This document shows positions 2,354 to 34,455 of a stretch of 56,525 nucleotides of DNA, in pieces. The notes below the pieces were generated by a model, which saw only the letters and a list, made by a program, of their open reading frames with translations, did not search any database and had not been told where the DNA came from. This DNA is from Chloroflexota bacterium (GTDB lineage Bacteria > Chloroflexota > Dehalococcoidia > SM23-28-2 > HRBIN24). The DNA lies in the NCBI GenBank assembly GCA_030550295.1, contig JAUQPQ010000003.1:1-56525 (forward strand), in the 5' to 3' direction. The first letter of the stretch is position 1. The number at the start of each line of letters is the position of its first letter. The position numbers and the translations under genes are program-made.

Positions 2354-2368
2354 TCCTGGCAGGAGGTG

Positions 2369-4296: not shown

Positions 4297-4367
4297 CGTT
4301 GGATCAATTGTATACTACAGCTGAACTATGGTGGCGCTGGTATCTAAGCCGTCGGGGGGGTAAGGTC

Positions 4368-5555: not shown

Positions 5556-5596
5556 GACCCTCTCCCCAGTCTCTTGCCGGCCTCTGGGTCAGCTCC

Positions 5597-6313: not shown

Positions 6314-7440
6314 AGCAGCCGCCTAACGTCGGTCTTTTCGTAACGTCGCAGCTTCTCCTCGTCTAGCTGGATGCCAAGCCCAGGGCCCTGTGGGACGTGC
6401 ACATAGCCCTGTTGGTCCACCTGGAGGGGTTCAGTAAGCATGAAGTCGCGGATCTCAGGCGTCCAGCACGGAGGTTCTAGAGGGAACTCAAGGAAAGTCA
6501 CTCCTCCTGCCGCTGCCACGTGCATGTTGGCCACCAGGCCTATCCCGTTGGTCCAAGTGTGGGGCGTAAACTCCCGTTTGGCCTGCCTGATCATGAAGGC
6601 GAGGCGGTGGCACGTCCAGATGCCCCCTACGAAGGTGCAATCGGGCTGGTAGACGTCAAGGGAATTATGTTCTAGGTAAGCTGATATCTCCTCTGGGCCG
6701 CGGGCCAGTTCGCCCCCAGCGAGGCGTAGCGAGTTCAAATGTGACCTGAGCTCGGCCAGGCCGTGGTAGTCGAAGGCGTCAAGGGGCTCCTCTAGCCAGT
6801 ACACTCCCATGGCCTCCAGCTCTTTGGCTACCCATATAGCAGTGCGTAAGTCCCACCGGTGCGGCTGCTGATCAGGGGCGATGCGCCATCCCCAGTTAGC
6901 GTCCACCATGATGGTCATGGAATCGCCCACAGAGGTGCGCACCGCCTCCAGCACCTTTAAGTCTTCCCTGGGATCGGCCGAGTGGAAGCGGAGCTTGATG
7001 GCGCGGAACCCAAGAGCTTGGAACTCTTGTACCACGTCCACCCTCTCAGCTGCTGGCCGTAGCTCAGCAGTAGAGGCGTAGGCCAAAAGCCGGGGCTCGC
7101 CACCTCCTAGTAGGCGGTAGATGGGCTCTCCCAAGGCCTTCCCCACGATGTCCCACAGGGCTACCTCCAAAGCCCAAGGCCTACCCACGAAGAAAGAGAA
7201 TGACCGCAGGTTCTCCACGTGACGCACGATGTCCATGGGGTCTTGTCCCACGAGGAGGGCCCCGGCTACGTCCCAGCGCACCGGCACACCCCCTGAGCCT
7301 ACCCCCACAATCCCTTCGTCTGTGTGGACTTCTACCACATGCACTCGGGCGACATGGCTTGGGAAAGGCTGCCAGGTGGGGTGGAAGGCTCGAGGCAGGG
7401 GGAACTCGAAGACCCTAGTCTTTACTTCTGTGACCTTCAC
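6310..7440 (-). CDS. Mandelate racemase/muconate lactonizing (enolase superfamily) enzyme
   Basis: ALWDIVGK, IKLR, MVDAN, WLEEP, AGGE, PH, PGLGI; GTG 7440 follows SD GGAGGT. Confidence 0.88.
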   Translation of the reverse strand: MKVTEVKTRVFEFPLPRAFHPTWQPFPSHVARVHVVEVHTDEGIVGVGSGGVPVRWDVAGALLVGQDPMDIVRHVENLRSFSFFVGRPWALEVALWDIVGKALGEPIYRLLGGGEPRLLAYASTAELRPAAERVDVVQEFQALGFRAIKLRFHSADPREDLKVLEAVRTSVGDSMTIMVDANWGWRIAPDQQPHRWDLRTAIWVAKELEAMGVYWLEEPLDAFDYHGLAELRSHLNSLRLAGGELARGPEEISAYLEHNSLDVYQPDCTFVGGIWTCHRLAFMIRQAKREFTPHTWTNGIGLVANMHVAAAGGVTFLEFPLEPPCWTPEIRDFMLTEPLQVDQQGYVHVPQGPGLGIQLDEEKLRRYEKTDVRRLL

Positions 7441-7535
7441 TGCACCTCCCTGAATCACAGGCCGTTAACTTTAGTAGGCACTTGCTATTCTAAGCGATCC
7501 ACAAGTAATCTGTGGAAGGCAAATGGAGGTGTGCC

Positions 7536-8729
7536 ATGCCTGGCCCGTTGGAAGGGATAAGGGTTCTGGATTTCACCATCGCTCAGCAGGGGCCCTATGC
7601 CACTCTTTTGCTATCCCACATGGGAGCTGAGGTAATTAAGGTAGAGATCCCTGGCCGGGGCGACGTCACCCGGGAGATAGCCCGCGATCGCCGTACCAGG
7701 CTGAGCTACTGCTTTTTGGCTCTCAACCTAGGGAAAAAGAGTGTGACCATCAACTTGAAAAGCGCTAAAGGGCGGCAGCTGGTTCTAGACCTAGTCCAGC
7801 ATTGCGACGTGGTGGTGGAGAACTTCAACCCTGGCGTCATGGAACGGCTGGGGCTAAGTTATGAAACGCTGCGAGCGGTCAACCCGAGGATTATATACGC
7901 CAGTGCATCGGCCTTTGGCACGAAAGGCCCTTGGGGGAAACTCCCCGGGGTAGACCTGTTGGCCCAGGCGATGGGTGGCCTCATGAGCGTTACTGGGTAC
8001 CCAGGAGAGCCTCCCCACCCAGTGGGGGCAGCCGTAGCCGACCACATTGGCGCAGTCACTTTGGCCCTAGGGGTGGTAGCTGCCCTTGTGGCCAGGGAGC
8101 ATACTGGTCAGGGGCAAAAGGTGGAGACGTCCCTCCTAGGAAGCATCATGGCTGCCCAGTCTTGGGAGATCGCCTATTACCTTAACAGTGGGGAATCGCC
8201 TTCAAAGGCGGGGAGGGGCCATAGCCTAGTCCCCCATATTTACGGCGTCTATAGGACGGCCGACGGTTTTCTAGCCATAGGGACGGTGCCTATAGAGCAG
8301 TGGGAGCAGTTCTGTCAGGCCATCGGACTGCCCCACCTGGCCTCAGACCCACGCTTTGCGCGGTTAGGGGAACGTCTACGTCGGTTAGAAGAGCTGCGTC
8401 CTATCCTGGACGACCACTTCTCCCAGCGCCCTACCGAAGAATGGGTAGCGTGTCTTCGGGCCATTGATATCCCGGCTGGCCCAGTGCTGGACTACATCGA
8501 AATGGCTAAAGAGGAACAGGTTCACGCCAACAGGTACCTGGTGCAGATAGAGCACCCGAGGGCGGGGGAGGTAACGGTGGTCAACGTGCCCATACAGTTT
8601 TCGGCTACCCCTGGCTCCATAAAGGGGCCAGAGCCAGAGCTAGGCCAACACACTGAGGAAGTGCTAAGCATCTACCTGGGCCTGTCTGCTGAAGAGATAG
8701 CAACCCTCCGGGCCGATGGCGTTATCTAA
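7536..8729 (+). CDS. Family III CoA-transferase (CaiB/BaiF)
   Basis: GPLEGIRVLDF, GAEVIKVE, NLGKKSV, ENFNPG, catalytic VAD, PELGQHT. Confidence 0.9.
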   Translation: MPGPLEGIRVLDFTIAQQGPYATLLLSHMGAEVIKVEIPGRGDVTREIARDRRTRLSYCFLALNLGKKSVTINLKSAKGRQLVLDLVQHCDVVVENFNPGVMERLGLSYETLRAVNPRIIYASASAFGTKGPWGKLPGVDLLAQAMGGLMSVTGYPGEPPHPVGAAVADHIGAVTLALGVVAALVAREHTGQGQKVETSLLGSIMAAQSWEIAYYLNSGESPSKAGRGHSLVPHIYGVYRTADGFLAIGTVPIEQWEQFCQAIGLPHLASDPRFARLGERLRRLEELRPILDDHFSQRPTEEWVACLRAIDIPAGPVLDYIEMAKEEQVHANRYLVQIEHPRAGEVTVVNVPIQFSATPGSIKGPEPELGQHTEEVLSIYLGLSAEEIATLRADGVI

Positions 8730-10003
8730 GGCGACGTCTCCTCTAATCGTCCCTGATACAGCAAGGGGACGGGGCTAGGGAGAGGGCCCATGACCACCCC
8801 AGCCTCCCTCAATGAGGCTATCTCCTGGTCTGAAAGCCCCAGAAGTTCCCGTAGTATTTCGTCAGTGTGTTCCCCCAGGGCAGGAGGTGGCCCTTTGACA
8901 CCACCAGGAGTGACGGAGAGCTTAACAGGGGTATTGGGCACCTTCAAGCGAAAGCCCTTAGGGTGTTCTACTTCCACAAACATCTCCCTGGCAAGAATTT
9001 GGGGCATCTCGGCTGCCTGGGCGATGTTGTTCAAGGGCCCGCAAGGGATGCCCACCCCTCCCAGCTCCTCCAACCACTCTTGAGTAGTCTTCTGGCGGAA
9101 CGCCTCCGAAAGGATAGGCTCCAGAAGGTGATGATGCCGCGTGCGCAGTGCCGGGGTCTCGAAGCGGGGGTCATCGATGAGGTGAGCTAGACCCAAGAGG
9201 GCCAGCAAGATCTCCCACTGGTTCTCTACCCCCCAGCTGAGGGCGACCACGATCCACCCGTCCTTAGTAGGGAACGCCTGGAAAGGGGTGACCGATGGGT
9301 GCCTGGTCCCTAGGGGGCCAGGGACTTCCCCAGTGGCGAAATAGCGCACAAAGGCGTTTTCTAAAATGGCGATCTGGCAGTCCAGCATGCTTATGTCTAC
9401 CATTTGGCCTCGGCCAGTCCTATCCCTCTCCCTCAGGGCAGCAAGGATGCCGATGGCGGCGAAAAGTCCTGCTGCAATGTCGCCAAGGGAAATGCCTGGC
9501 CGCACCGGGGGGCCATCAGGGTAACCGGTGATGCTCATGATACCGCCCATCCCCTGGACGATGATGTCTAGGGCTGGCTTTTCCCGCCATGGCCCTGTTT
9601 GCCCGAAGCCCGAAACAGCGCAATATACGAGGCGGGGGTTACGCTGGGAGAGCACCTGATAGCCTAGGCCGAGCTTTTCCATCGTCCCAGGGGTGAAGTT
9701 CTCCACCAGAACATCGGCCTTCTCGACGAGGCGCAGGAGGAGCTCTTGGCCTTCCGACCGTTTAAGGTCGATGCATATGCTGCGCTTGCCCCGGTTGATG
9801 GAAAAGAAGTAGGCTGATTCATCGTCTATATAGGGCTCGGTGGTGCGGGCGACATCGCCATAAGGGGTTCGCTCCACCTTTATGACGTCGGCCCCCAAAT
9901 CGCACATGATCATGGTGGCAAAGGGCCCCGCCAATACCCAGCTCAAGTCTAGGACTACCAAGCCTTCGAGGGGCCCTCTTGTAGGACGCCTCTTTTCCCC
10001 CAT
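8726..10003 (-). CDS. Family III CoA-transferase (CaiB/BaiF)
   Basis: GPLEGLVVLDLS, AGPF, NRGKRS, ENFTPG, SLGD, PALGEHT. Confidence 0.9.
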   Translation of the reverse strand: MGEKRRPTRGPLEGLVVLDLSWVLAGPFATMIMCDLGADVIKVERTPYGDVARTTEPYIDDESAYFFSINRGKRSICIDLKRSEGQELLLRLVEKADVLVENFTPGTMEKLGLGYQVLSQRNPRLVYCAVSGFGQTGPWREKPALDIIVQGMGGIMSITGYPDGPPVRPGISLGDIAAGLFAAIGILAALRERDRTGRGQMVDISMLDCQIAILENAFVRYFATGEVPGPLGTRHPSVTPFQAFPTKDGWIVVALSWGVENQWEILLALLGLAHLIDDPRFETPALRTRHHHLLEPILSEAFRQKTTQEWLEELGGVGIPCGPLNNIAQAAEMPQILAREMFVEVEHPKGFRLKVPNTPVKLSVTPGGVKGPPPALGEHTDEILRELLGLSDQEIASLREAGVVMGPLPSPVPLLYQGRLEETSP

Positions 10004-10053
10004 GGCCGCTTATTTATTGTAGCTAGCCATAGGGGCGAACGGTATGGATGCTC

Positions 10054-10332
10054 CTAGGGCTGGGAGGTAGATAGGGTAAGTCTGGGGCCCTCTTCCGTTT
10101 CCTCAGCGTCGATGGTGGCCTCAGCCAGAAGGGCTGCCACATCGGGCGCTACCAAGAGCACGGCCTCTTCGCCACTCCGGTATACCTGGTCCCCTTCCCT
10201 CTCTTGGTCGAAGGCCAACTCGAATCCCCCTCCCCGTTGGACGAGGCGCAATACCTCTTCAGGGGAGCTGGCTAGCTCCAACTTGATCTCTTTTAGGAGC
10301 TCTGCTGCCTTCTCGGTCACTCTTAGCGCCAT
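10054..10332 (-). CDS. Small HesB/IscA-fold-like protein lacking cysteines
   Basis: MALRVTEKAAELLK...VLRL...GFELAFD...GDQV...LLVAPD...ATID pattern resembles the HesB-like fold; no Cys. Confidence 0.55.
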   Translation of the reverse strand: MALRVTEKAAELLKEIKLELASSPEEVLRLVQRGGGFELAFDQEREGDQVYRSGEEAVLLVAPDVAALLAEATIDAEETEEGPRLTLSTSQP

Positions 10333-10649
10333 CTCTTTCTACCTCCTCTCTGAGGGCGACTCTCAACGCCTAGCGCAGGGCGCATTAGGCGGAAGCAGCT
10401 AGAGCAATAGACAGGCCTGTCCTGCCTGGGAAGGAATGGGACTTGCGTAGGGGCCCCACAACGGGAGCAGACGGCATCGTGCAAGGGGCGAGGTTGGGCC
10501 CCCGTGGCAGCCCGTCGCGCCTGGCGGCACTCAGGGCAACGCTTGGGGTCCTGATAGCCGCGGCTTGCGTGGAACTCCTGATCTTCTGCGGAGAAGGTGA
10601 AGACCTTCCCGCACTCGACACAAACTAACTCTCGATCCTGGTACACCAC
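10323..10649 (-). CDS. Zinc-ribbon protein with CxxC-x17-CxxC domain
   Basis: YQDRELVCVECGKVFTFSAEDQEFH...PKRCPECR followed by CSRCG...VPFLPRQDRPVYCSSCF. Confidence 0.85.
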   Translation of the reverse strand: MVYQDRELVCVECGKVFTFSAEDQEFHASRGYQDPKRCPECRQARRAATGAQPRPLHDAVCSRCGAPTQVPFLPRQDRPVYCSSCFRLMRPALGVESRPQRGGRKRWR

Positions 10650-10732
10650 CCGATGACCTCCTTCTTCTCGCTTGCCAGCCTGGTCTAACTTCGGTCATCG
10701 GGTGGAGCTGCAGAGTCAAGCGACCCGATACC
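10646..10732 (-). promoter_or_regulatory. Structured 5' UTR able to sequester the SD end and GTG start of the zinc-ribbon gene
   Basis: Perfect 13-bp inverted repeat 10646-10658 / 10693-10705, plus an alternative partner at 10723-10732. Confidence 0.55.
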
Positions 10733-10758
10733 AGAAGGCTAAACCTGGCTTCTTGCTA

Positions 10759-10787
10759 ATGTTACCATCGTCGGCACGCGTTGGCAA
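10759..10787 (-). promoter_or_regulatory. Sigma70-type promoter for the zinc-ribbon gene
   Basis: Minus strand TTGCCA-17 nt-TAACAT with extended TG. Confidence 0.55.
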
Positions 10788-10869
10788 CCCCATTATTGAT
10801 ATGCTGCATCCCCCAAAAACATGCCTCCCCATCCACCCTCTGCCAACTTATAATCTTACAAGCAACCAG

Positions 10870-11355
10870 ATGAGCGAGGCGTGGGCGGCCAGGGCCATAG
10901 ACCTTCTTGCCCAGAGAGGAGAGACCCTGGCTGTAATGGAGGGGTCGACGGGTGGGCTCCTTTCCCACTTGCTTACCCAGGTACCGGGGGCGTCACGCGT
11001 GTTTTTGGGTGGGGTAGTGGCCTATGGTAACCAACTTAAAGAGCAGGTGGGGGTACCCGGCAAGGTGCTCAAGGCCTTTGGCGCAGTAAGCGAGGAAGCT
11101 GCCCTGGCCATGGCTGAGGCAGCCCAAAGATGGGCAGGCGCTTCAATAGGGCTCGCTGTTACAGGGATCGCTGGCCCGACAGGCGGTAGCGCTGCCAAGC
11201 CCGTGGGCCTGACCTACGTCGCAGCGGTAGGACGGGGCATATCTCTATGCCGGGGTCAAACCTTACTGGGAGACCGCGGTCAGATCAAATATGAATCGGC
11301 CGTTATGGCCATTCGCCTACTCTTGGAGCTGGCTGAAAGGGAGGAGGAGAGATAG
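10870..11355 (+). CDS. CinA C-terminal domain / NMN deamidase (PncC-like)
   Basis: TLAVMEGSTGGLL, PGASRVFLGGVVAYGNQLK, GAVSEE, TGIAGPTGGSAAKPVG. Confidence 0.85.
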   Translation: MSEAWAARAIDLLAQRGETLAVMEGSTGGLLSHLLTQVPGASRVFLGGVVAYGNQLKEQVGVPGKVLKAFGAVSEEAALAMAEAAQRWAGASIGLAVTGIAGPTGGSAAKPVGLTYVAAVGRGISLCRGQTLLGDRGQIKYESAVMAIRLLLELAEREEER

Positions 11356-11846
11356 TGTCGTTGGAATCGACTCTCTTCCGGCGTATTATGTCCCAGTTCC
11401 CAACAGGGGTGACCGTGGTCACCACCCGTGTGGGGGACTACCTTCATGGCAGCACCGTTAACTCCTTTACTTCTGTCTCCCTGGAGCCAATGTTGGTGCT
11501 GGTCTGCTTGGACAAGAAGGGTGACACTCATGAGTTGTTGCTAAAGAGCGGCATCTTCGCTGTCAACATTTTGGCCCAGGAACAAGAAGGCATGTCTCGA
11601 CTTTTCGCTACCAAGGGTGAGGGCCATAGTCACAACCTTGACCAGGTGGCGTACAGGCTAGGAGTCACTGGGGCGCCTATCCTAGAGGGTTGCCTTGCCT
11701 ACCTTGACTGTGTGGTGGCCCACCGCTTTCCTGGCGGGGATCACACCATCTTCATAGGCGAGGTAGTGGATGGGGCCCTAATACGCGAAGCGCCTCCCCT
11801 CGTCTTCTTCCGGGGCAAGTACGTGCGTCTGCTTGAGAGCCCCTAG
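11355..11846 (+). CDS. Flavin reductase family protein
   Basis: [30 protein letters not shown]. Confidence 0.9.
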
Positions 11847-13018
11847 CGCTGCACCACCATGGCGATGCCCTGGCCTCCCCCGATACAAAGGGTGGCGAGG
11901 CCCAGGTGCGCCCCTCGTCGCCTCATCTCGTAGAGAAGGGTGACCAGGATGCGTGCCCCGCTCGCCCCTATGGGGTGGCCCAAGGCTATAGCGCCCCCGT
12001 TGACGTTGACCCGCTCCCAGTCCCAGCCAAGCTCGCGACCTACAGCTAACGATTGGGCAGCGAAGGCTTCATTGGCCTCAATAAGATCCACGTCCCTCAA
12101 GTCTATGCCTGCCTTTTCTAAGGCTTTGCGCGTGGCGGGGACCGGTCCCATCCCCATGATGCGAGGGGGCACGCCGGCGTTAGCATAAGAGCGTACCCAG
12201 GCAAGTGGCTCCAACCCCAACTCCTTAACCTTGCGCCTAGACGCTAGCACTACTGCTGCCGCGCCATCGTTAATGCCGGAGGCGTTGCCGGCTGTGACGG
12301 TGCCGTTGGAAGCGAAGGCGGGACGGAGGCGGGCCAGCTTCTCCGGGCTGGTATCGGGCCGGATATGCTCATCACGATCGACGACACTTGTGCCTTGTCG
12401 GCCCTGGATCTCTACTGGAGTCACCTCTTCGGCAAAGCGCCCCTCCTGCCAGGCTTTGGCAGCCTTCATGTGGCTCTCATATGCGAACCGATCCTGGTCC
12501 TCTCGTGATATTTCGTACTCACGCGCCACATTCTCGGCCGTGTTACCCATGTGACATTGTTCAAAGGCGCACCATAGGCCATCCTTGATCATGTGGTCTA
12601 CCACCTCTCCGTGTCCCATCCGGTAGCCGAAGCGGGCCCTGGGCAGAAGATAGGGGGCATAAGACATGCTTTCCATCCCACCTGCCACAATCACATCGGC
12701 TTCGCCAAGGGCGATAGCTTGCGCTGCGAGCACTACCGCTTTCAGGCCGGAGCCACACACTTTGTTAACAGTGGTCGCGGGGACACTTTCAGGCAGACCA
12801 GCCATCATAGCCGCCTGCCGTGCTGGGTTCATACCCAGCCCCGCCGACAGGACGTTGCCCATTATCACCTCTTCAACCTGATTAGCCTCGATCCCTGCCC
12901 GCCGGATAGCCTCTTTTATGGCTACAGCGCCAAGCTGTGGCGCTGGGACATCGCTCAAACTGCCGCCGAAAGAGCCTATGGGCGTTCTTGCCGCCCCAAC
13001 GATGGCGACTTCCTGCAT
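11843..13018 (-). CDS. phaA: Acetyl-CoA C-acetyltransferase (biosynthetic thiolase)
   Basis: [29 protein letters not shown]. Confidence 0.85.
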
Positions 13019-13046
13019 AACTTCCCCCTGTTTTGCTGTTTTGTCT

Positions 13047-13331
13047 TCATTGTAGCATAGCGTAAATGAAAAGCCCTGCTGCCGCCAGGACAGCCAGCCG
13101 AAGACGACGCGTAAGAGGTACGGGCCGCATACCCAGCAAGATGATCACCGCAGCTATGATGGGTGTAAGGAACACCCTAGCAGGATGCTCTGGCTGAAGG
13201 CCAGCGGCGCCTAAAATGGCGTGTAGGGCTATTGCGCACGCAAAAGATGCTACCGCCAGGAGGACTATCCGGCTGTATCTAGGACGTGTACCTGCCCGCG
13301 CAGGTGGCGGCAGGCCCTTCTTTTCCCTCAT
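13047..13331 (-). CDS. Small hypothetical membrane protein (about 3 TM)
   Basis: 94 aa hydrophobic ORF tightly packed between phaB and phaA on the same strand. Confidence 0.6.
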
Positions 13332-13337
13332 GGCATA

Positions 13338-14084
13338 CTAGCGTAGGTACATGCCCCCATTAATATCAAAGGTGGCACCGGTAATGTAGTCGCCCTCGGC
13401 CACTAGGAAGCGGCATAGCTTGGCCACCTCTTCCGGCCGGCCGAACCTACCCATGGGGATACGGGCTAGCAGGCTCTTCTGAACATCCTCGGGTAGGCTT
13501 GTGACCATATCTGTCTCAATGAAGCCAGGGCAAACGGCGTTCACGGTGATGTTGAAGCGGGCCAGCTCTAAGGCTACAGCTTTGGTGAACCCCACGATCC
13601 CCGCCTTGGCCGCGGCATAGTTGGCTTGCCCTATGTTGCCCATCTGCCCCACGATGGAGGACATGTTGACGATCCTGCCACCGCCCCTCTGGATCATGTG
13701 GGGGACCACAGCCTGGGTGCAGTAGAATATGCTGTCCAGGTCAGTGGCGATCACCTCTCGCCACTCCTCCATGCTCATGCGCCGAAGCGTCCTGTCGCGG
13801 TTGACGCCAGCATTGTTGATGAGGATATCGATCCCACCAAAGGCTTCAACGGTGGCATCAACCAGCTTTTGTACCTCGTCTGGATGGGCTACTCCTGCCT
13901 GTACACATATGGCCTTGTGACCTTGACTGTGAAGCTCCTCAAGCAATTGCTCGGCTAGCTCCTTGTGCTGGTAATAGTTGATGGTCACCTTCGCCTTGTG
14001 AGAGGCTAGCTCCTTAGCTATAGCACGTCCTAGCCCCCGCGAACTCCCAGTGACAATGGCAACCCTATCGGACAGGCACGCCAT
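13338..14084 (-). CDS. phaB: Acetoacetyl-CoA reductase / 3-oxoacyl reductase (SDR)
   Basis: TGSSRGLG, NNAGVNRD, GQANYAAAK, PGFIETDMV, INGGMY; next to a thiolase. Confidence 0.75.
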   Translation of the reverse strand: MACLSDRVAIVTGSSRGLGRAIAKELASHKAKVTINYYQHKELAEQLLEELHSQGHKAICVQAGVAHPDEVQKLVDATVEAFGGIDILINNAGVNRDRTLRRMSMEEWREVIATDLDSIFYCTQAVVPHMIQRGGGRIVNMSSIVGQMGNIGQANYAAAKAGIVGFTKAVALELARFNITVNAVCPGFIETDMVTSLPEDVQKSLLARIPMGRFGRPEEVAKLCRFLVAEGDYITGATFDINGGMYLR

Positions 14085-14184: not shown

Positions 14185-15864
14185 TTATATCGCCACGGGG
14201 GGCTGGTACTCGCCGAATATGCGGCGCATGACGCCACATATCTCGCCCAGGGTAGCGTAGGCCTGTACGGCTTCCATGATGGGCGGCATAAGGCTAGCTG
14301 AGTCGTGGCAGGCTTCCTCTAGACGCTTTAGGGCTGCCCTTACTTGGGCCTCGTCACGGTGACGGCGCACTTGCTTCAGCTTCTCCATTTGGGCCTGTTC
14401 GGCCTCCGGGTTGGTACGGAACACCATCTTGGGGCGCTCATTCTCCAGGCAGTACCGGTTCACTCCCACGATGATACGCCTTCCCTCGTCTACAGCTTTC
14501 TGGTGGGCGTAGGCTGCCTCTTGGATCTCTCTCTGCATGTAGCCCGACTCGATAGCTGCCACCGCCCCTCCCATGTCCTCGATCTTGTGCAGGTATTCCC
14601 AGGCCTTCTTCTCTAGCTGGTTGGTGAGCCACTCCACGTAGTAGGAGCCTGCCAGGGGGTCTACTGTATCGGTCACCCCTGTCTCGTAGGCGATGATCTG
14701 CTGAGTTCGCACGGCTATGCGTTGGGCCTCCTCTGTGGGGAGGGAGAGGGCCTCATCGTAACAGGAGAGGGCCAGGGACTGGACACCTCCCAGGACTGTG
14801 GCCAGGGCCTGGATAGCTGCCCGGACGATGTTTAGCTCAGGCTGTTGAGCGGTGAGGGTGGCCCCTCCCGTTTGGACATGCGTACGGAACATCCAGGAGC
14901 GGGGATCCTTAGCGTGGTAGCGCTCCCTCATGATACGGGCCCACATGCGACGCAGGGCCCGGTATTTGGCTATCTCCTCGAAGAAGTTGTTTTGAGTATT
15001 GAAAATCCAGGAGATGCGCGGGGCGAACTCGTCTATGTCTATTCCCCTCTCTAGGACGGCGTCCACATATGCTATGGCATTGGCGAAGGTGAAGGCCATC
15101 TCCTGCACAGCTGTCGCCCCGGCATCGCGGATGTGATAGCCCGATATGCTGATGGCGTTGAACTTGGGCATCTCTTTGGCGCACCAGGCGATGAGGTCGG
15201 CGGCCAGCCGCAGAGAGGGCTTAGGGGGGAATATATAGGTGCCACGCGCCACATATTCTTTCAAGATGTCGTTCTGTACCGTCCCCGATACCTGCGAGAG
15301 GGGAACCCCTTGCTTTCGGGCCACGATAGCGTACATGGCCACTATGACTGCGGCGGGGGCGTTGATGGTCATAGAAGTGCTCACCTTATCCAGAGGGATC
15401 CCGTCGAACAAGGCCTCCATGTCGGCCAACGTGTCGATGGCCACCCCCACCTTGCCCACTTCCCCTCTGGCATGTGGGTCATCGGAGTCATAGCCCAGTT
15501 GGGTAGGTAAGTCAAAGGCTACCGAGAGACCTGGCTGGCCTTCCTGAAGCAAGAACTTAAAGCGCTTGTTGGTTTCCTCGGCCGTCTCGTAGCCGGCGTA
15601 TTGGCGTATGGTCCACAGTCGGGTGCGGTACATGGTAGGGTGGATACCCCGGGTGTACGGGTATTGGCCAGGGAAGCCTATGTCTCTAAGGAAATCGATA
15701 TCGGCGATGTCCAGGGGCGTGTAGATGACCTTCGTCTCGGTGGAGCTGGTGGCGAATTCGGAGTCTTGGCGTTCCCCTCCCTTGCGCAGGGCTTCCTGGA
15801 GGATCGTCTTTTCCCACCGTTCCTGCTCCCGGCGGATGCGCTCCAGCTCTTCCTTGTCTAGCAT
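14185..15864 (-). CDS. B12-dependent acyl-CoA mutase, large (substrate-binding) subunit; candidate ethylmalonyl- or methylmalonyl-CoA mutase
   Basis: [48 protein letters not shown]; no C-terminal DxHxxG cobalamin-binding domain. Confidence 0.9.
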
Positions 15865-15873
15865 TTCATCCTC

Positions 15874-16371
15874 CTAATCTCTCACTTGAGGGAAAGAGTG
15901 GGGTATCCCCACCTCTCTCTTGGGTACCAGGACTGAGCGCCGGAAGCGCATCACTAGTTCCCCGTGCTGGTTGTAGGCTCGAGTCTCCACGCTGACGACC
16001 CCTCTATCAGGGTTAGAGCGGGATTCCCGTTTCTCTAGGACGGTGGTCTCAGAATAGATGGTGTCGCCGTGGAAGACAGGGCGCAGAAACTCGATCTTTT
16101 CAAAGCCTAGGTTGGCGATCGCCTTACCTGAGATGTCACGGACGCTTTGCCCAAGGGCTATATCCACCACCAGGTTGCCCACCACCACGTTGCGTCCGAA
16201 CTGGGTCTTCTTGCCATATTCGGCGTCTATGTGGAGGGGATGGTGGTTCATAGTAAGCATGCAGAAGAGGATGTCGTCCATATCGGTGATGGTACGTCCG
16301 GGCCAGTGCCTATAAGTGGCGCCTACCTCGAAGTCTTCGTAGTAGCGGCCAAACTCGTACGCTTCAGACAT
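15874..16371 (-). CDS. MaoC-family hydratase, probable mesaconyl-CoA hydratase (Streptomyces Mch-like)
   Basis: FGRYYEDFEVGATYRHWPGRTIT, LTMNHHPLH, DISGKAIANL, FHGDTIY resemble the MaoC gene of streptomycete ccr clusters as I recall it; SD GGAGG before ATG 16371. Confidence 0.7.
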   Translation of the reverse strand: MSEAYEFGRYYEDFEVGATYRHWPGRTITDMDDILFCMLTMNHHPLHIDAEYGKKTQFGRNVVVGNLVVDIALGQSVRDISGKAIANLGFEKIEFLRPVFHGDTIYSETTVLEKRESRSNPDRGVVSVETRAYNQHGELVMRFRRSVLVPKREVGIPHSFPQVRD

Positions 16372-16385
16372 GGTATCTACCTCCA

Positions 16386-17558
16386 TCATTCCCCGAACAT
16401 GCGCAGAATGTTGCGGGCGATGACTAAGCGCTGGATCTCGTTTGTGCCCTCGCCGATGAGCATAAGGGGGGTATCGCGGTAGTAGCGCTCTACTCGCATG
16501 TCCTTGGTATAGCCGATGCCGCCATGGATACGGAGGGCCTCAAGGGCCACCTCCTGCGCCACCTCTGAGGCGAAGAGTTTGGCCATGCCGCCCCACAGGT
16601 CGGCCCTCTCGCCACTGTCCTTCTTGGCGGCGGCGGCACGGGTGAGGAGGCGGGCTGCCTCTACCTTTGTGGCCATATCGGCTAGCTTGAGCTGGATAGC
16701 CTGATGCTCGGCGATGGGGCGGCCGAAGGTGACCCGCTGTTTGGCGTACCTTATGGCGTCCTCCAGGGCTGCAGTGGCCACCCCCACCGCCCGGGCCGCC
16801 ACGTTGATCCGCCCCACCTCGATGCCGCTCATGATGTGCAACCAACCCTGCCCCTCTTTCCCCCCAAGGAGATTCGCCTCTGGCACCCGGGCATCTTCGA
16901 AGTAGAATATGGTGGTGTCTATGCCTTTGTACCCCAGTTTCTGGATCTGGCCCCCTACGGTGAGGCCTGGCGTAGACTTCTTCTCTACCAACAAGGCGCT
17001 CATGCCCCTGTAGGGGGGCTCGGCTTCAGGATCGGTTTTGACGAGGACGGCGAATAGATGGCCATATATCCCGTTGGAGACGAACATCTTGGTGCCATTG
17101 AGCACATAGAAGCCATCGTGACGGCGGGCTATCGTCTGGATGGATTGGAGGTCAGAGCCGGCGTTGGGTTCCGTCATACAGATGCCGCAGTGGATTTCGC
17201 CGCTTGCTATGTGGGGCAGAAAGCGCGTCTTCTGGTCCTCGGTGCCGAACTGGCTTATCATCCATGAGACGATGACGCTGCCGTTAATGATGCCGCCCAG
17301 GCTCATCCAGCCGCGGGAAAGCTCCTCCACTATGGCTGCATAGGTTACAAGGGATAGGCCTAGGCCTCCATATTCGGGCGGCACGGCCACCCCAAAAAGG
17401 CCCATCTCTTTCATCTTGCGTACCAGCTCGTGAGGATACTCGTCCCGGTGGTCCAGATCCGAGGCGATGGGTATGACTTCTTTCTCCACGAAGCGGCGCA
17501 CCTGGGCGACGATCATTTGCTCTTCCTCTGAAAGGGTGGCCATGGTGGGCAAAGGCAT
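16386..17558 (-). CDS. Acyl-CoA dehydrogenase, probable methylsuccinyl-CoA dehydrogenase (Streptomyces-type)
   Basis: HRDEYP, EELSRGWMSLGGIIN, KLGYKGIDTT, EVGRINVAAR, KKDSGERADL, LIGEGTNEIQ; SD AAGGAG before ATG 17558; ccr cluster context. Confidence 0.7.
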   Translation of the reverse strand: MPLPTMATLSEEEQMIVAQVRRFVEKEVIPIASDLDHRDEYPHELVRKMKEMGLFGVAVPPEYGGLGLSLVTYAAIVEELSRGWMSLGGIINGSVIVSWMISQFGTEDQKTRFLPHIASGEIHCGICMTEPNAGSDLQSIQTIARRHDGFYVLNGTKMFVSNGIYGHLFAVLVKTDPEAEPPYRGMSALLVEKKSTPGLTVGGQIQKLGYKGIDTTIFYFEDARVPEANLLGGKEGQGWLHIMSGIEVGRINVAARAVGVATAALEDAIRYAKQRVTFGRPIAEHQAIQLKLADMATKVEAARLLTRAAAAKKDSGERADLWGGMAKLFASEVAQEVALEALRIHGGIGYTKDMRVERYYRDTPLMLIGEGTNEIQRLVIARNILRMFGE

Positions 17559-17592
17559 AGCTTGCTCCTTTATTAAAGTTTCTGCTGGCTCC

Positions 17593-17659
17593 AGTGTAAG
17601 GCCACGAGAGGGCCTTGACAAGGGCAGTGCCTTGACCCATCCCCCCTCCCCCCCTACAC
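17593..17659. promoter_or_regulatory. Back-to-back divergent sigma70 promoters between the mcd and mcl candidates
   Basis: Minus: TTGTCA(17621-17616)-17-TACACT(17598-17593). Plus: TTGACC(17632-17637)-16-TACACT(17654-17659). Confidence 0.55.
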
Positions 17660-17693
17660 TGGAGGCCGACAGCACCATATATTAGGAGGCACC

Positions 17694-18722
17694 ATGTTTT
17701 ACCTCGAGAAGCAGAACCGGATGGTAATACCTAGGACGGAGCTCACCTATCCTGCTCATCAGATGCGCTTCCACGAGAACGCGGCCAAGGCCCCTGTAGA
17801 CCACGTCATGGCCGACTTCGAGGACGCTTGTCCCTACGAATACAAAGGAGAGGCAAGCCGTCGAGTAGCTGTGGAGGCGCTAAACACCATCGACTTCGGC
17901 GATAAGGTGGTGACGGTGCGCCCCAACAACATTCGCTCCCCTTACTTCCTAGGGGATCTCCAGGCGGTGATGGTGGGCGCACCAGACCGCTTTCATGGCA
18001 TCGTCCTGCCCAAGGTGTACAGCCCAGAGGACATAGTATACGTTTCCAGCCTTCTGGACGCCCTGGAGAAAGAGGGTGGGTGGACTACGCGCGTCCAGAT
18101 AGAGGCGCTCATCGAGACCCCCCAGGCCTTAGTACGGGCCTATGAGATCGCCACCGCATCGGATCGGATGGCGGGTCTCATCTTTGGCATCGCCGACTTT
18201 GCCGCTTCCATCGGGGCGAAGGAGTATGTGGAGGATCAGCACAAGTATTTCTTGTACCCCAAGCAGGCTGTTGTTGTGGCAGCCAAGGCGGCTGGCCTCC
18301 ATGCCATTGACTGCGTCTACTTCCGTATAGTGCGTAGGGACACCCCTCCTGAGGAGGCGAGGGAGATAGAGGAGGGGCTCAGGCGTAAGAACATGGAGGC
18401 GGCCAATCTGGGGATGGATGGCTCCTGGATAATCCACCCCTCTCAGGCTCAGATAGTTAACGAATGCTATACCCCTAGCGACGAGGAGGTGGAGCGGGCC
18501 CGCAGAGCTATCGAGGCATACTATAAGGCAGGTGGCGGCTCCATCATCAACCCTGAGACAGGAGAGTTCGAGGACGATGCTACTGTTAAGGCCAAGCTGA
18601 TGCTATTGGCCAAGGCCGTGCAGGCAGGCAAGCTCACCAAGGATTATCTGGACGAGCTGGCCCGCCGCTCGGCCGAGATTACAGGCTATAACATTCTCAA
18701 GGTTATGAGGCGGATGGGTTAG
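17694..18722 (+). CDS. CitE/HpcH-family CoA-ester lyase, probable malyl-CoA/beta-methylmalyl-CoA lyase
   Basis: ADFEDA, VRPN, LPKV, ALIETP, FGIADF, AIDCVY, WIIHPSQ; ccr cluster context. Confidence 0.75.
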   Translation: MFYLEKQNRMVIPRTELTYPAHQMRFHENAAKAPVDHVMADFEDACPYEYKGEASRRVAVEALNTIDFGDKVVTVRPNNIRSPYFLGDLQAVMVGAPDRFHGIVLPKVYSPEDIVYVSSLLDALEKEGGWTTRVQIEALIETPQALVRAYEIATASDRMAGLIFGIADFAASIGAKEYVEDQHKYFLYPKQAVVVAAKAAGLHAIDCVYFRIVRRDTPPEEAREIEEGLRRKNMEAANLGMDGSWIIHPSQAQIVNECYTPSDEEVERARRAIEAYYKAGGGSIINPETGEFEDDATVKAKLMLLAKAVQAGKLTKDYLDELARRSAEITGYNILKVMRRMG

Positions 18723-19140
18723 GGGCCGGGTCCAACAAAACTGTGGCCTCACCCGTCAGTACCGGTTGGCCCGCCTGATTGTAACACTCGGTTCGTAGGG
18801 TAACGAGCCTTTTCTCATAGTCTATGGCGGTCACCTCTGCCGTAGCTGTCACTGTGTCCCCTACAAAGACGGGGCGCAGGAAACGTAAACTTTGCCCCAC
18901 GTAGATGACGCAGCTGTGCGGGGCAACCTTGGTGCCCAGGGCAGCCGAGATAAGGCTTGCCGTTAGCATCCCATGGACTACGCAGCGACCGAAGCGAGTG
19001 CCGGCGGCATAGCTTTCATCCAAATGAAGTGGGTTCGTGTCGCCAGTGACCTGAGCGAACAAGCGGACGTCCTCAGAAGTGATGGTCTTTTCTATCTGTA
19101 CTTTCTGGCCCACTTCCACTCCCATAAGCGCCACGGCCAC
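18703..19140 (-). CDS. (R)-specific enoyl-CoA hydratase (MaoC/PhaJ/CroR-like)
   Basis: FAQVTGDTNPLHLD, VVHGML, FLRPVFVGD. Confidence 0.85.
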   Translation of the reverse strand: MAVALMGVEVGQKVQIEKTITSEDVRLFAQVTGDTNPLHLDESYAAGTRFGRCVVHGMLTASLISAALGTKVAPHSCVIYVGQSLRFLRPVFVGDTVTATAEVTAIDYEKRLVTLRTECYNQAGQPVLTGEATVLLDPAPNPSAS

Positions 19141-19153
19141 TACCTCCTTGGCA

Positions 19154-20410
19154 TCAGGGCAGGCCCTTTAGACCAGCCCTTGGCACCCCCACTAGGGCCA
19201 CCATGTTGCCTTCAGGGTGACGATTCTCGTACATCAGCTGGTGGGCAAGCCCTATCTCTTCAAACTTAAAGAGGCGAGAGGCCATGCATGGGTCGACCTT
19301 TCCCTCAATCACTAGCTGGTTGAAGGCGGCGGCCTGCTCATCGTTAGCGAAGTGAGAGCCCTGCAGCCGCTTTTGCCTCATCCACAGGTAGCGCAGATCA
19401 ACTACTGCGTTGTAGCCAGTGGTGCCAGCACAGATGACTACCATCCCACCGGTGTCGCACACAAATATAGAGGTAGGGATGGTGTCTTCCCCAGGATGCT
19501 CGAACACGATGCGTGGGTTCCGCCTTTCGCCTAAGACTTCCCAGATGGCGCGCCCAAAAGCCCGGACGCCCTCCAGCCAGCGGTTATATGCCTCCCGGTC
19601 GCTCCAGTGGGGCATCATGCCCCAGTGATTGAAGTTTTTGCGGTTGATGCACCCTTTGGCCCCCAAACGTATGCAGAAGTCAAACTTCTCCTCAGCTGAT
19701 ACGACAGCTACAGGAATGCCCCCGTGCACTTTAGCGATCTGAATGCCCATAGACCCTAGGCCTCCTGCCCCACCCCACACCAGGACCACGTCGCCAGGCT
19801 GAACGGTGTGGGGAGGCCAGCCCAAAAGCATACGGTAGGCTGTGGCCCCCACCAGGGTGGGGGCAGCTGCTTCCTCCCAAGTGAGATGGGGAGCCTTGGG
19901 TAGGCACTGGTGCGCCTGTACCTTGCAGAACTGGGCGAAGCTCCCCCAGTTGGTCTCGTAGCCCCAAATGCGGGCCGAAGGTGCCATAATGGGGTCTCCC
20001 CCTGCCTTAATGTAGGGGTCCTCCGCGTCCCACCACCCGCAGTGGATTACGACATGGTCCCCCACCTTGACGTTGGTCACCTTTTCCCCTACCGCCCACA
20101 CGATGCCCGAGGCGTCTGACCCACCTATATGGAAATCGGAAGGATCCCCATCTCGTTGCTGAATAGATATGACATCTACCGGCACCCCCAGGGCAGCCCA
20201 TACGTTGTTGTAGTTGATGCCGGCCGCCATCACGTATACCAAGGCCTCGTCCGGCCTTAGGTCTTTAGGTACCTCTACCTTCTCCGTCCTGAAAGCATTG
20301 ATGGGCTCACCAAACCGCTCCCGCCGAATCACCTGTGCATACATGTAACGCGGTATATGCCCCAGCGGAGGCATCTCCCCAATTTCATAGATATCTTTCC
20401 TAACAATCAT
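19154..20410 (-). CDS. ccr: Crotonyl-CoA carboxylase/reductase
   Basis: [58 protein letters not shown]; the Asn, Glu and His CO2-binding positions of carboxylating enoyl reductases appear conserved. Confidence 0.93.
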
Positions 20411-20493: not shown

Positions 20494-21237
20494 TTAGGTA
20501 TGGCCAGTGATGCGGTAGGCAGCCTCTTGGAAGCGGCGGCGGTAATCGTCTTGCTGGCGCAAGGTCTGGTTTACTTCTCCCTCTTGGTGAAGGGGTTCCC
20601 AAGTTCCTAGGGAAAGGTCAAGTATCTGCTTAGCTGCCTTAAGCGCCGGTAGTGAGTGGGCGGCCATCTGGGTGGCGAGGGAAAGGGCGCCTGCCAGCAG
20701 CTCTTCCTGGGGGAGGACGCGGTTGACGAGGCCCATACTTAGAGCCTCTTGGCAGTCTACGGGGCGGGCGGTGTAAATGATCTCCTTGGCTCGGGACAGC
20801 CCCACCAGGCGGGGGAGATAGGCTGCTCCAGTGACTAGGCCGTATTCGGCTCCAGGGAAGCGGAAGCGGACGTTGTGGGAGGCGAGACGGATGTCGCAGT
20901 AGATGGCCAGAAGGGCTCCTGCCCCGTAGGCGTAGCCATTGACGGCGGCGATGACAGGCTTGGGAAAGCGCAACACTTTGATGAGGGTGTTAGCTATCAA
21001 GGGGCCCAGATCGGGCTGGGCCACGGCCTCGGCCATATCGGCGCCGGCACAGAAGGCCTTATCCCCTGCCCCAGTGACCACAAGCACATGGACTGGATCG
21101 TCTTGGGCCAGGGCGTCCAGGGCGGCTGAGAGCTCTTGCGCCATTTGGCGGTCTATGGCGTTGCGGGTGTCGGGGCGGTTGAGGCGTAGGAGGGCCACAT
21201 GGCCCTGCTGTTCGAGTTGAAGACGCTGGTAGTCCAT
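20494..21237 (-). CDS. Crotonase-superfamily protein
   Basis: LNRPDTRNAI, KAFCAGADM, IAAVNGYAYGAG; canonical catalytic Glu residues absent. Confidence 0.85.
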   Translation of the reverse strand: MDYQRLQLEQQGHVALLRLNRPDTRNAIDRQMAQELSAALDALAQDDPVHVLVVTGAGDKAFCAGADMAEAVAQPDLGPLIANTLIKVLRFPKPVIAAVNGYAYGAGALLAIYCDIRLASHNVRFRFPGAEYGLVTGAAYLPRLVGLSRAKEIIYTARPVDCQEALSMGLVNRVLPQEELLAGALSLATQMAAHSLPALKAAKQILDLSLGTWEPLHQEGEVNQTLRQQDDYRRRFQEAAYRITGHT

Positions 21238-21304
21238 TTACGTGCCCGATAAGTAAAGGGCCTTGGGGAGAGAGGGCAACGCCTTCCCCAAGGCCCTATT
21301 GCTC

Positions 21305-22537
21305 CTAAACGGACAGGATGTGGATGCTAAGGGCTGCTGCCTCGCCCCTAACCATGCCGCCCCCGTTCTCGGTGAGGCCCACTTTGGCCCCCTCTACCTG
21401 GCGGGCCCCTGCCTCTCCTCTGAGCTGCCAGAAGATCTCACATATCTGGGCCACGCCGGTGGCGCCTATGGGGTGGCCTTTGGCAAGTAGCCCGCCGCTG
21501 GTATTAACGGGCTGCTTGCCCCCAAGCTTAGTGTAGCCGCTACGGATGAGGGAGGGGCCCTCCCCCTCGGCGCAAAGGCCGAGCTCTTCGTAAATTATGA
21601 GCTCAGCCGGGGCGCTGGCATCGTGCACTTCTATGACGTCCAAGTCCTTGGGGCCGATGCCCGCCTTCTGGTAGGCCAGCTGGGCTGTCTCGGTGGTGAT
21701 GCCCGGCTCCCCAGGAAGCCGGTCGCGACCTGAGGCCAGCACGGAGGCCCTCACATATACCGGCCGGGAAGTAAACTGGCGGGCCTTGTCAGCAGCCACA
21801 AGCACGACCGCTGCTGCCCCATCGCTTATGGGCGAGCACATAAGCCTAGTTAGAGGCTCCACTACGAGGGGGGCGTTGAGGATGTCCTCTATTGTGTACT
21901 CGCCTCCATATTGAGCCTTGGGGTTTAGGGAGCCGTGGTATAGGTTCTTTACCGCAACACGTGCGAAGTCTTCCTTAGTAGCGCCTGTCCTCTCCATATA
22001 ACGGCGGGCGAAGACGGCATAGAAGTCCATGAACATGCTCCGCCGCTCTCCGGCCCCCTCCTCGAAGGTTGGCTGCCTTTCGCTACTCTTCTCCTTGGCC
22101 TCCTTAGCGGCCTTGGCCATCTGCTGTACCCACTCCACGTCCACCGCGGCGCCGATAGCCTGGAAGGATCGCCTTTTATCTTCGTGGGTGAGCTTCTCCA
22201 TCCCTAGCACCAGGGCGATGTCGTACATGCCAGAGGCTACGTAGAGCCAGCCTAGGTGGAAGGCCGTGGAGGAGCTGGCGCAAGCGTTCTCCGTATTTAT
22301 TACAGGTATGCCCCCTATCCCTAGCTCCCTTAGCACCACCTGCCCCCGGATCATCTCTTGGCCGGTGATAAGGCCAGCGGTAGCGTTGCCTACCACTGCC
22401 ACCTGAAGCTTGGACTTGTCTATCCCTGCCGAATCGAGGGCCCCCTGTACCGCTTCCCGTGCCAAATCCTTCAAGCTACGGTCTAGAAACTTCCCAAACT
22501 TGGTCATCCCAGCCCCGATGATGGCTACGTCGCGCAT
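21305..22537 (-). CDS. Thiolase, SCP2/lipid-transfer type
   Basis: ENACASS, CSPISDGAAA, EVHDA, SGGLLAKGHPIGATG, ENGGG. Confidence 0.9.
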   Translation of the reverse strand: MRDVAIIGAGMTKFGKFLDRSLKDLAREAVQGALDSAGIDKSKLQVAVVGNATAGLITGQEMIRGQVVLRELGIGGIPVINTENACASSSTAFHLGWLYVASGMYDIALVLGMEKLTHEDKRRSFQAIGAAVDVEWVQQMAKAAKEAKEKSSERQPTFEEGAGERRSMFMDFYAVFARRYMERTGATKEDFARVAVKNLYHGSLNPKAQYGGEYTIEDILNAPLVVEPLTRLMCSPISDGAAAVVLVAADKARQFTSRPVYVRASVLASGRDRLPGEPGITTETAQLAYQKAGIGPKDLDVIEVHDASAPAELIIYEELGLCAEGEGPSLIRSGYTKLGGKQPVNTSGGLLAKGHPIGATGVAQICEIFWQLRGEAGARQVEGAKVGLTENGGGMVRGEAAALSIHILSV

Positions 22538-32090: not shown

Positions 32091-32120
32091 TTGACATTCG
32101 CAAACCCTGGCGTGTATTTT
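32091..32120 (+). promoter_or_regulatory. Candidate promoter of the AOR cluster
   Basis: TTGACA-18 nt-TATTTT. Confidence 0.4.
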
Positions 32121-32148
32121 GGGAATGCATTTGTATAAGGGGGACACC

Positions 32149-32610: not shown

Positions 32611-32621
32611 AGGAGGGCGGC

Positions 32622-34445: not shown

Positions 34446-34455
34446 GAGGTAAGAG

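Follow-up and report, generated by a model that had tools for sequence, protein, structure and literature searches.

Which acyl-CoA is rearranged by the mutase encoded at positions 14185..15864, on the minus strand, of a 56,525-nucleotide stretch of DNA from a Chloroflexota bacterium (assembly GCA_030550295.1, contig JAUQPQ010000003.1; the whole stretch is referred to as the window)? The protein shares the architecture, length and fold family of the split methylmalonyl-CoA mutases (MCMs) of the thermophile/archaeal type, and proteins of its kind are annotated everywhere as generic methylmalonyl-CoA mutase. On the basis of gene context and distribution across genomes, it is probably a split, adenosylcobalamin-dependent ethylmalonyl-CoA mutase (Ecm) of a Chloroflexota ethylmalonyl-CoA pathway, which would make it a known activity with a new sequence and architecture. 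An earlier note on this DNA had proposed an ethylmalonyl-CoA mutase, and the computational checks support that proposal, with the activity itself a prediction. The gene and its diagnostic motifs are as follows.

14185..15864, minus strand: acyl-CoA mutase large subunit, here called the ALS type (PF01642, 751 bits; TIGR00641, 771 bits)
15592..15606, minus strand: RQYAG, residues 87-91, with the Tyr equivalent to Propionibacterium shermanii Tyr89 (dicarboxylate type)
15241..15261, minus strand: KEYVARG, residues 202-208, with the Arg equivalent to Arg207 (carboxylate-binding type)
15001..15021, minus strand: PRISWIF in place of PRLSFF(W/F), residues 282-288 (F286W, F287I and W288F)
14761..14781, minus strand: QSLALSC in place of QSLHTNS, residues 362-368 (H364A, T365L, N366S and S367C)

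Substitutions are given in P. shermanii numbering, which is the chain index plus 1, anchored on Tyr89. The open reading frame (ORF) is stop-free and encodes 559 amino acids; in profile searches PF01642 covers the protein from end to end, and the matches exceed the family cut-offs (22.1 bits for PF01642 and 303.8 bits for TIGR00641). The B12-binding domain PF02310 is not found in the target, and the genome carries it on three other contigs. The split large subunit with RQYAG, KEYVARG, QSLALSC and RISWI that the earlier note had described is therefore present as described, with every motif in its place and no B12 domain attached. The equivalents of Tyr89, Arg207, Tyr243-His244 (GYHIRD), His328 and Gln330 are retained. 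Compared with an MCM, the target has all of the Tyr89, Arg207 and His244 equivalents and lacks the conserved QSLHTNS and RLSFF strands. In HMMER alignments with solved structures, human MCM, P. shermanii MCM and HcmA all read RLSFF(W/F) and QSLHTN(S/G), with rqyag or rqiag at the RQYAG position in the solved MCMs and HcmA; because these enzymes keep the usual motifs at these sites, the departures in the target are real. Against NF006944, a model that fits fused enzymes and has a cut-off of 876 bits, the target scores 653 bits and the canonical-motif split MCM of the same genome 676 bits. The changed residues, which we take to wall the acyl pocket near the migrating carbon, are read as substitutions that would make room for the extra methyl group of ethylmalonyl-CoA.

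The earlier note had also set the protein apart from isobutyryl-CoA mutase (ICM), with Phe at the Tyr89 site, and 2-hydroxyisobutyryl-CoA mutase (HCM), with Ile, and this distinction holds. IcmA has Phe and Gln at the Tyr89 and Arg207 sites, where the target has Tyr and Arg. HcmA (4r3u) has Ile (rqIag), Gln (aQkey) and Asp (stDfd) at what we take to be its determinant sites, the Tyr89, Arg207 and Asp117(Hcm) positions, where the target has Tyr, Arg and Ala.

The rewritten strands define a clade. Among the 120 best database homologues of the target (72-100% identity), QS[LIM]AL[SA]C is found in 119, RQYAG in all 120 and KEYVARG[TA]Y in 118; the named ones are all Chloroflexota or Dehalococcoidia metagenome-assembled genomes (MAGs), and the annotation reads only "methylmalonyl-CoA mutase family". 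Eighty loci from species-representative genomes comprise 56 of this clade (55 assigned by motif and L090 by the tree), three with a related QS[ML]AICS variant, and 21 with HTN or HVN at the corresponding site. Since the QSLALSC departure is present in 119/120 homologues and 55/56 clade loci, it is not due to chance. The 56 loci come from Dehalococcoidia, Anaerolineae, Caldilineales, Ca. Amarolinea aalborgensis and one Thermoleophilia MAG.

At 12 positions at least 90% of the 29 clade rows have one residue that departs from the split MCM consensus, taken over 15 rows: P170, D247, I284, W286, I287, Y301, L304, T328, A365, S367, C368 and F482. Eight of the 12 fall in three active-site strand motifs, and the change is complete at the F286/F287 sites, with Trp and Ile in 29/29 clade rows and Phe and Phe in 15/15 split MCM rows. 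Thus the clade differs from split MCMs by these 12 substitutions, including HTNS to ALSC and FF to WI, and by having ethylmalonyl-CoA pathway genes as neighbours, whereas all checkable radical-chemistry and carboxylate-binding residues are identical. The triad reads HTN in human MCM, P. shermanii MCM and HcmA, H-N in Escherichia coli ScpA (middle residue not read), either HTN or HVN in the 15 split MCM rows, and HT followed by N (six rows) or D (two rows) in eight ICM-like rows. An HTN-type triad is, as far as these rows indicate, retained in enzymes acting on four-carbon acyl groups. The three QS[ML]AICS loci (L078, L083 and L091, from Bacillota and Syntrophales MAGs) share W286 and I287 with the target clade; no Ccr lies near them, and the variant may represent another specificity.

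The known Ecm, MeaA, is reportedly a fused enzyme, found in Rhodobacter, Methylobacterium, Paracoccus and Streptomyces. Two relatives of the source organism that encode crotonyl-CoA carboxylase/reductase (Ccr), G056 and G251, have such a fused mutase of ~650 amino acids with a C-terminal B12 domain. As there is no Ecm-specific NCBIfam model, its identity as MeaA was set through the Atlas, in which its nearest clusters are "protein meaA" (0.97), and through its 62-63% identity, over the full length, to the annotated meaA of Ruegeria sp. TM1040; unannotated stretches of Paracoccus denitrificans, Methylobacterium and Streptomyces records match it at the same identity. The RTYAGH and QLP features that the earlier note had given as canonical for Ecm are indeed seen in fused MeaA-type sequences. 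The Chloroflexota MeaA rows read FRTYAGH, RYGVQV and QLPA, corresponding to His328Gly, Ser329Val, His364Gln, Thr365Leu, Asn366Pro and Ser367Ala; Gln, Pro and Ala occupy sites 364, 366 and 367 in 5/5 MeaA rows, and Leu365 and the other motifs are read from the two Chloroflexota rows. MeaA and the target share the proposed reaction and the pathway position after Ccr, both have the Tyr and the Arg, and both alter the His-Thr-Asn triad (QLP versus ALS), with Thr365Leu common to the two. The main differences are that the target is split, with 559 residues and no PF02310, whereas MeaA carries its B12 domain in the same chain, and that the target reads RQYAGY, RTHVQT (His kept) and ALSC plus SWI. The target thus lacks the single-chain B12 domain and the signature residues of MeaA and falls outside the MeaA clade.

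No MeaA-type enzyme was found in the source genome, a 1.58-Mb assembly of 127 contigs that is 95.7% complete and in which the window is contig C62; the earlier note had counted a canonical ecm elsewhere in the genome among the findings that would speak against its reading. A separate canonical-motif MCM is also present. The names of the closest homologues and the sequencing runs that contain the DNA indicate an uncultured hot-spring Chloroflexota, probably of the Dehalococcoidia. A MeaA query gave no match at E<=1e-180. There are five PF01642 genes, on contigs C92, C46, C62 (the target), C51 and C44, and none of them encodes a chain with an attached B12 domain or a MeaA-like sequence. The C92 mutase has the canonical MCM motifs RQYAG, IARGTY, RLSFFF and QSLHTNS and is followed by a glyoxalase-type epimerase. 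The C46 mutase is ICM-like (RQFSG and IAQKEF, with F and Q at the Tyr89 and Arg207 sites), and the C51 and C44 mutases are divergent, each with its own adjacent small subunit. A B12-binding partner is available for the target: the only unattached B12-binding small subunit of the genome, on contig C95, has the DxHxxG motif (GLDGHDRG) and lies beside MeaB, and we infer that the target pairs with it.

The distribution of the ALS signature follows that of Ccr and excludes that of MeaA. A sample of 301 genomes of the class to which the window belongs was searched, with Ccr scored when above the TIGR01751 cut-off and the motif scored by a degenerate DNA pattern, for which reversed-pattern controls were all 0. 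A first, stricter pattern missed AGY serine codons (L038, in G015, reads QSIALSC), and a looser pattern was therefore used. Ccr is present in 74 genomes, the motif in 81 and MeaA in six; Ccr and motif occur together in 59, Ccr alone in 15, the motif alone in 22 and neither in 205. The 74 Ccr genomes comprise 59 with the motif, six with MeaA, none with both and nine with neither. One counted genome (G244) is unpublished, and 58/73 Ccr genomes carry the motif when it is left out. All six MeaA genomes are Ccr-positive and motif-negative. Among the nine Ccr genomes with neither mutase, three are 81-88% complete, and G019 lacks any mutase. Within families the two types are exchanged, with 12 ALS and four MeaA genomes in f19 and 11 ALS and two MeaA genomes in f41. 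In a sample of 151 Anaerolineae-class genomes centred on Ca. Amarolinea, Ccr and the motif each occur in nine genomes, the identical nine, and MeaA in none of the 151. In four Ccr-positive genomes of that sample (G301, G302, G304 and G305) no PF01642 match scores below 670 bits, and none of these genomes therefore holds a MeaA-, C44- or C51-type alternative. The check that the earlier note had proposed, co-occurrence of the QSLALS clade with ccr in genomes that lack MeaA, is thereby borne out, and the clade is never found together with MeaA.

A maximum-likelihood (ML) tree of 63 rows (IQ-TREE, quick search) places the ALS rows in one starred group (99*), separate from split MCM, ICM-like and AIC rows. 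MeaA is represented by five rows, which group by themselves (100*) on a stem of 2.61 beside E. coli ScpA and the C44 mutase, where long branches are flagged. The very long branch of the C51 mutase falls inside the ALS group; its placement and that of the C44 mutase are treated as unreliable, as both lie on very long branches. The target is 58% identical to the MCM of its own genome, 56% to the ICM-like paralogue, 45% to ScpA and 42% to MeaA.

In the window, the mutase gene lies within a set of genes to which steps of the ethylmalonyl-CoA pathway can be assigned.

7512-8729, plus strand, and 8726-10003, minus strand: two family III CoA-transferases, possibly linked (PF02515)
11843..13018, minus strand: PhaA-type thiolase, acetyl-CoA C-acetyltransferase (Thiolase_N/C; NF004206, 578 bits)
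13338..14084, minus strand: PhaB/FabG-type short-chain dehydrogenase/reductase (SDR), proposed acetoacetyl-CoA reductase (profile matches)
15874..16389, minus strand: single MaoC hot-dog protein of 171 amino acids, proposed mesaconyl-CoA hydratase (PF19315 MC_hydratase, 77.7 bits)
16386..17678, minus strand: acyl-CoA dehydrogenase (ACAD), proposed non-canonical methylsuccinyl-CoA dehydrogenase (Pfam ACAD domains)
17694..18722, plus strand: CitE/HpcH-type lyase, proposed beta-methylmalyl-CoA/malyl-CoA lyase (PF03328)
18703..19140, minus strand: PhaJ-like (R)-specific enoyl-CoA hydratase of 145 amino acids, proposed to form crotonyl-CoA (PhaJ 1iq6, 115.6 bits)
19154..20410, minus strand: Ccr (TIGR01751, 566 bits; cut-off 378.55)
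20494..22537, minus strand: crotonase-family protein (20494-21237) and SCP-x-type thiolase (21305-22537), upstream of ccr (profile matches)

The order on the minus strand is ACAD, MaoC, mutase, SDR and thiolase, with the lyase diverging on the plus strand; beyond the lyase, the minus strand continues with the 145-residue hot-dog protein, Ccr, the crotonase and the SCP-x thiolase. The gene is thus coupled in the genome both to Ccr and to the lower pathway. Ccr matches the solved enoyl-CoA carboxylase/reductases 9kva, AntE and 4gi2 with 492-577 bits, and the PhaJ-like gene (NF006045, 126 bits) follows ccr on the same strand at a distance of 13 nt. The best solved relatives of the 171-residue MaoC protein are the N-terminal halves of the beta-methylmalyl-CoA dehydratase/mesaconyl-CoA hydratases 8hgn and 4e3e, and those of the lyase are the malyl-CoA/beta-methylmalyl-CoA lyases 5ugr, 4l9y and 4l7z; the lyase also matches DUF6986, weakly. 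From these solved relatives, every step of the ethylmalonyl-CoA pathway has a candidate within an 11-kb stretch, with the epimerase (C92) and the mutase small subunit (C95) located outside it. The mcd and mch candidates that the earlier note had placed beside the mutase are the ACAD and MaoC genes, which are directly upstream on the same strand as it had stated; its "mcd" does not stand as an orthologue of known Mcd. The ACAD gene overlaps the MaoC gene by 4 nt, and its longest-ORF start leaves 15 nt to the divergent lyase gene; its true start is probably the ATG of codon 41, at ~17558, since a Shine-Dalgarno-like AAGGAG precedes that codon and homologues have 386 amino acids. The ORF at 13047-13331 (94 amino acids) has no family match and is not found in related loci, and it is probably not a gene. 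For the two CoA-transferases, all NCBIfam equivalogs score below cut-off.

The same associations are visualized in other lineages. Ccr lies within 10 kb of the mutase in 14/56 clade loci versus 0/21 HTN/HVN loci, and the other neighbours in the 56 clade loci, many of which are on short contigs and for which the commonest neighbours were judged among the queries used, are lyase-like proteins (24), MaoC (22), SDR (22), ACAD (20) and thiolase (15). Ccr and ACAD lie upstream of the mutase in 11 Anaerolineae/Caldilineales loci; two annotated loci of the Anaerolineae type run Ccr (CBS fusion), ACAD, DUF6986 and mutase, followed in one by a hot-dog protein. In family f33 Ccr directly adjoins the mutase, and in a Thermoleophilia MAG the mutase, MaoC and ACAD are grouped with a Ccr-like gene (48% identity). 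In genus g16, which is without a bona fide Ccr, the arrangement MaoC-lyase-ACAD-MaoC-mutase-SDR-thiolase is still kept.

Two features of the Anaerolineae-type operons L075 and L080 are observed alongside. Their Ccr proteins (L075:4784-7081 and L080:4426-6309) have C-terminal CBS domains fused, which may be a sign that a nucleotide or ligand regulates the carboxylase. In the lyase slot, between ACAD and mutase, both encode a full-length DUF6986 protein (583 bits; L075:8477-9928 and L080:7508-8962); this position, together with the weak DUF6986 match of the window lyase, suggests that DUF6986 is a malyl-CoA-lyase-like family.

In the proposed pathway, the thiolase, the PhaB-like reductase and the PhaJ-like hydratase would make crotonyl-CoA, which Ccr would carboxylate, and the epimerase beside the canonical MCM on C92 would invert C2. 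The target mutase would then convert (2R)-ethylmalonyl-CoA into (2S)-methylsuccinyl-CoA, with the retained Tyr, Arg and His presumably holding the free carboxylate and the thioester as in methylmalonyl-CoA mutase. Its product would pass through the ACAD, the Mch-like hydratase of half size and the Mcl-like lyase to give glyoxylate and propionyl-CoA, and the pathway as a whole would serve to assimilate acetate. A broader proposal, to which we give about even odds, is that Chloroflexota and at least one Thermoleophilia lineage have a complete pathway in which up to four of five signature steps are non-orthologous or re-formatted: a split ALS-type Ecm, a short ACAD for Mcd, a single hot-dog protein for Mch and a CitE/DUF6986-type lyase for Mcl. 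In this proposal the mutase gained its ethylmalonyl-CoA specificity from a split MCM independently of MeaA and converged on the pocket positions of MeaA, with a shared Thr365Leu and different residues at 364 and 366.

Several points weigh against the assignment. The function is deduced from context and distribution, and the presumed pocket-lining role of the changed residues from motif position and the general layout of MCM structures. With respect to independent evolution, which the earlier note had also proposed, the ALS clade is distinct from MeaA in the ML tree and is likely of independent origin; as the approximately unbiased (AU) test does not reject ALS and MeaA as one clade (lnL difference 12.1, p 0.254), such an origin is not claimed as shown. 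The counts take in related genomes, so that Fisher's p overstates the case and is not to be read literally. Of the 81 motif-positive genomes of the class, 22 have no Ccr over the cut-off, 16 of which belong to the single genus g16, and mutase and Ccr are at most 15 kb apart in only 8/47 genomes positive by the stricter pattern. The Mch-like protein is half the canonical size and is not an Mch orthologue. The ACAD is closer to short-chain ACADs and FadE3 than to Mcd (best solved match FadE3 4iv6, 433 bits; Mcd 6es9, 273 bits), and by sequence it is not an Mcd orthologue. The RNA evidence is weak: among contigs from the RNA-library run X14, 10 short pieces are near-identical and one of these falls within the mutase gene, which is no proof of transcription, and run X15 gives 0 reads in the ~3% of the run that was sampled. 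One X14 contig skips 132 nt (44 codons, in frame; window 14703-14836) across QSLALSC; as it is anchored by no more than 20 letters at one end, a chimera or an origin in another organism is the most likely explanation.

A further point of this kind is that in some motif-positive genomes the only relative of Ccr is a short medium-chain dehydrogenase/reductase (MDR). In three Ccr-less genomes other than those of g16, a short MDR of 347-386 amino acids is encoded directly upstream of the mutase.

L016:4942-5985: short Ccr-related MDR
L017:7762-8922: short Ccr-related MDR
L020:6059-7129: short Ccr-related MDR

The best family of these proteins is TIGR01751, at 267-300 bits and below the cut-off of 378, and in g16 all five genomes tested hold a 55%-identical copy elsewhere. 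Compared with Ccr at the level of motifs only, the short MDR has N-x-N-x-x-W and GSH motifs and a Cys-rich zinc-site motif, reads WGFQ for WGYE and is without the Ccr insertion; for KsCcr, four CO2-pocket residues have been described (PMC6628652). The short MDR may be an unrecognised enoyl-CoA reductase or carboxylase.

Among the alternatives, the one that survives best is that the target acts on another substituted malonyl- or succinyl-CoA, either a longer alkylmalonyl-CoA or a C5-C6 dicarboxylate, or that it runs catabolically, from methylsuccinyl-CoA to ethylmalonyl-CoA, and not in acetate assimilation; we consider this alternative unlikely in either form. The mutase occurs without a bona fide Ccr in 16/16 g16 genomes and six others, family III CoA-transferases are found nearby in the window and in 5/56 clade loci, and the sister-like QS[ML]AICS variant is likewise without Ccr nearby. 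Leipoldt et al. 2017 (PMC5719088) offer a parallel in ActD and MatB of the actinonin and matlystatin clusters, which that paper assigns, as split mutases, to the "HCM subclass". On the strength of gene deletions and labelling, these are proposed there to convert hexylmalonyl-CoA to pentylsuccinyl-CoA after CCR and an epimerase, with the small subunit encoded elsewhere in the genome for one of the clusters (PMC5719088). By that description, ActD/MatB and the target are both split large subunits acting after CCR and an epimerase, with a small subunit that can lie elsewhere. ActD/MatB belong to actinomycete secondary metabolism, with hexylmalonyl-CoA as the proposed substrate, and are likened to the target by description; they are its nearest, conceptual precedent in the literature searched. 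Full-text literature searches found no description of a split Ecm or of an ethylmalonyl-CoA pathway in Chloroflexota. Against a different substrate, the clustered partners are C4-specific (PhaA, PhaB and PhaJ), and the Mch- and Mcl-like proteins fit C5 intermediates. In addition, the co-occurrence with Ccr and the exclusion of MeaA point to the reaction of MeaA, and the pocket changes are modest (Ala-Leu-Ser), unlike those of the Gly-rich C44 paralogue.

Less probable still is that the target is a second MCM, redundant or differently regulated, or a dual MCM/Ecm. The retained Tyr, Arg and His and the identity to the MCM of the same genome are compatible with this, and the pathway product propionyl-CoA needs an MCM downstream. 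The genome already has a canonical-motif MCM next to an epimerase, and G015 also carries both the canonical MCM and an ALS-type mutase. A second MCM is at odds with the 12 positions fixed differently from split MCM rows and with a distribution that tracks Ccr and not MCM. The surroundings differ as well: a B12 small subunit lies nearby in 0/56 clade loci versus 16/21 HTN/HVN loci, and no small subunit, Epi or MeaB adjoins the mutase in any of the 56 clade loci. For the dual Ecm/MCM option raised in the earlier note, no evidence was obtained. Finally, a 2-hydroxyisobutyryl-CoA/3-hydroxybutyryl-CoA mutase (HCM/RCM-like) feeding the adjacent SDR and thiolase is highly improbable and HCM identity is rejected: PhaB-like SDR and thiolase are among the commonest neighbours and the closest solved structure is HcmA 4R3U (568 bits), followed by MCM 2XIJ/1REQ, but the canonical MCM of the genome also matches HcmA best, with a higher score (591 bits), so that this match reflects the split subclass only, and the three determinant positions are MCM-type.

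The two divergent paralogues of the source genome were observed in passing. The C44 mutase (L012:9569-11290, minus strand) has a loop inserted before the Tyr motif and a Gly-rich GFGTGGVPW in place of the HTN strand. Its cluster (L012 ~2330-13923) holds the small subunit, an ACAD, a PrpD/MmgE-like protein, a DUF35 protein with an SCP-x thiolase, two SDRs, a crotonase and a radical-SAM/PDZ protein, and the enzyme looks like a separate, uncharacterised specificity class. In the C51 mutase (L011:2220-4244), which has the very long tree branch, neither the Tyr motif (RVLAG instead) nor the Arg motif is present, and QAVEVCA takes the place of the HTN strand; its neighbours are a small subunit, an ACAD, a crotonase and a major facilitator superfamily transporter. 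Elsewhere in the window, a 690-residue ORF (23963-26035, minus strand) fuses a class-I Cys-tRNA-synthetase-type catalytic domain to a family-2 glycosyltransferase domain, an unusual fusion that is possibly a thiol-cofactor ligase. Genes for a 4Fe-4S protein, a tungsten-type aldehyde:ferredoxin oxidoreductase (AOR) and a pyridine-nucleotide-disulfide oxidoreductase follow one another at 32119-35730 (plus strand) and make up an ordinary AOR module.

If the target is indeed a split Ecm, the ethylmalonyl-CoA pathway would have two structurally distinct ways of carrying out its B12-dependent step. Because MeaA and the ALS clade have altered the same triad differently, the two would constitute a natural experiment on the retuning of a mutase pocket, and a thermophile-derived split Ecm could find use in synthetic CO2-fixation cycles built on Ccr and Ecm. 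The assignment would explain how the pathway is completed in Ccr-positive Chloroflexota without MeaA and would revise metabolic reconstructions of uncultured Dehalococcoidia and Anaerolineae, including the wastewater organism Ca. Amarolinea. It would also mean that annotation pipelines keyed to MeaA miss the pathway in abundant hot-spring, subsurface and wastewater bacteria.

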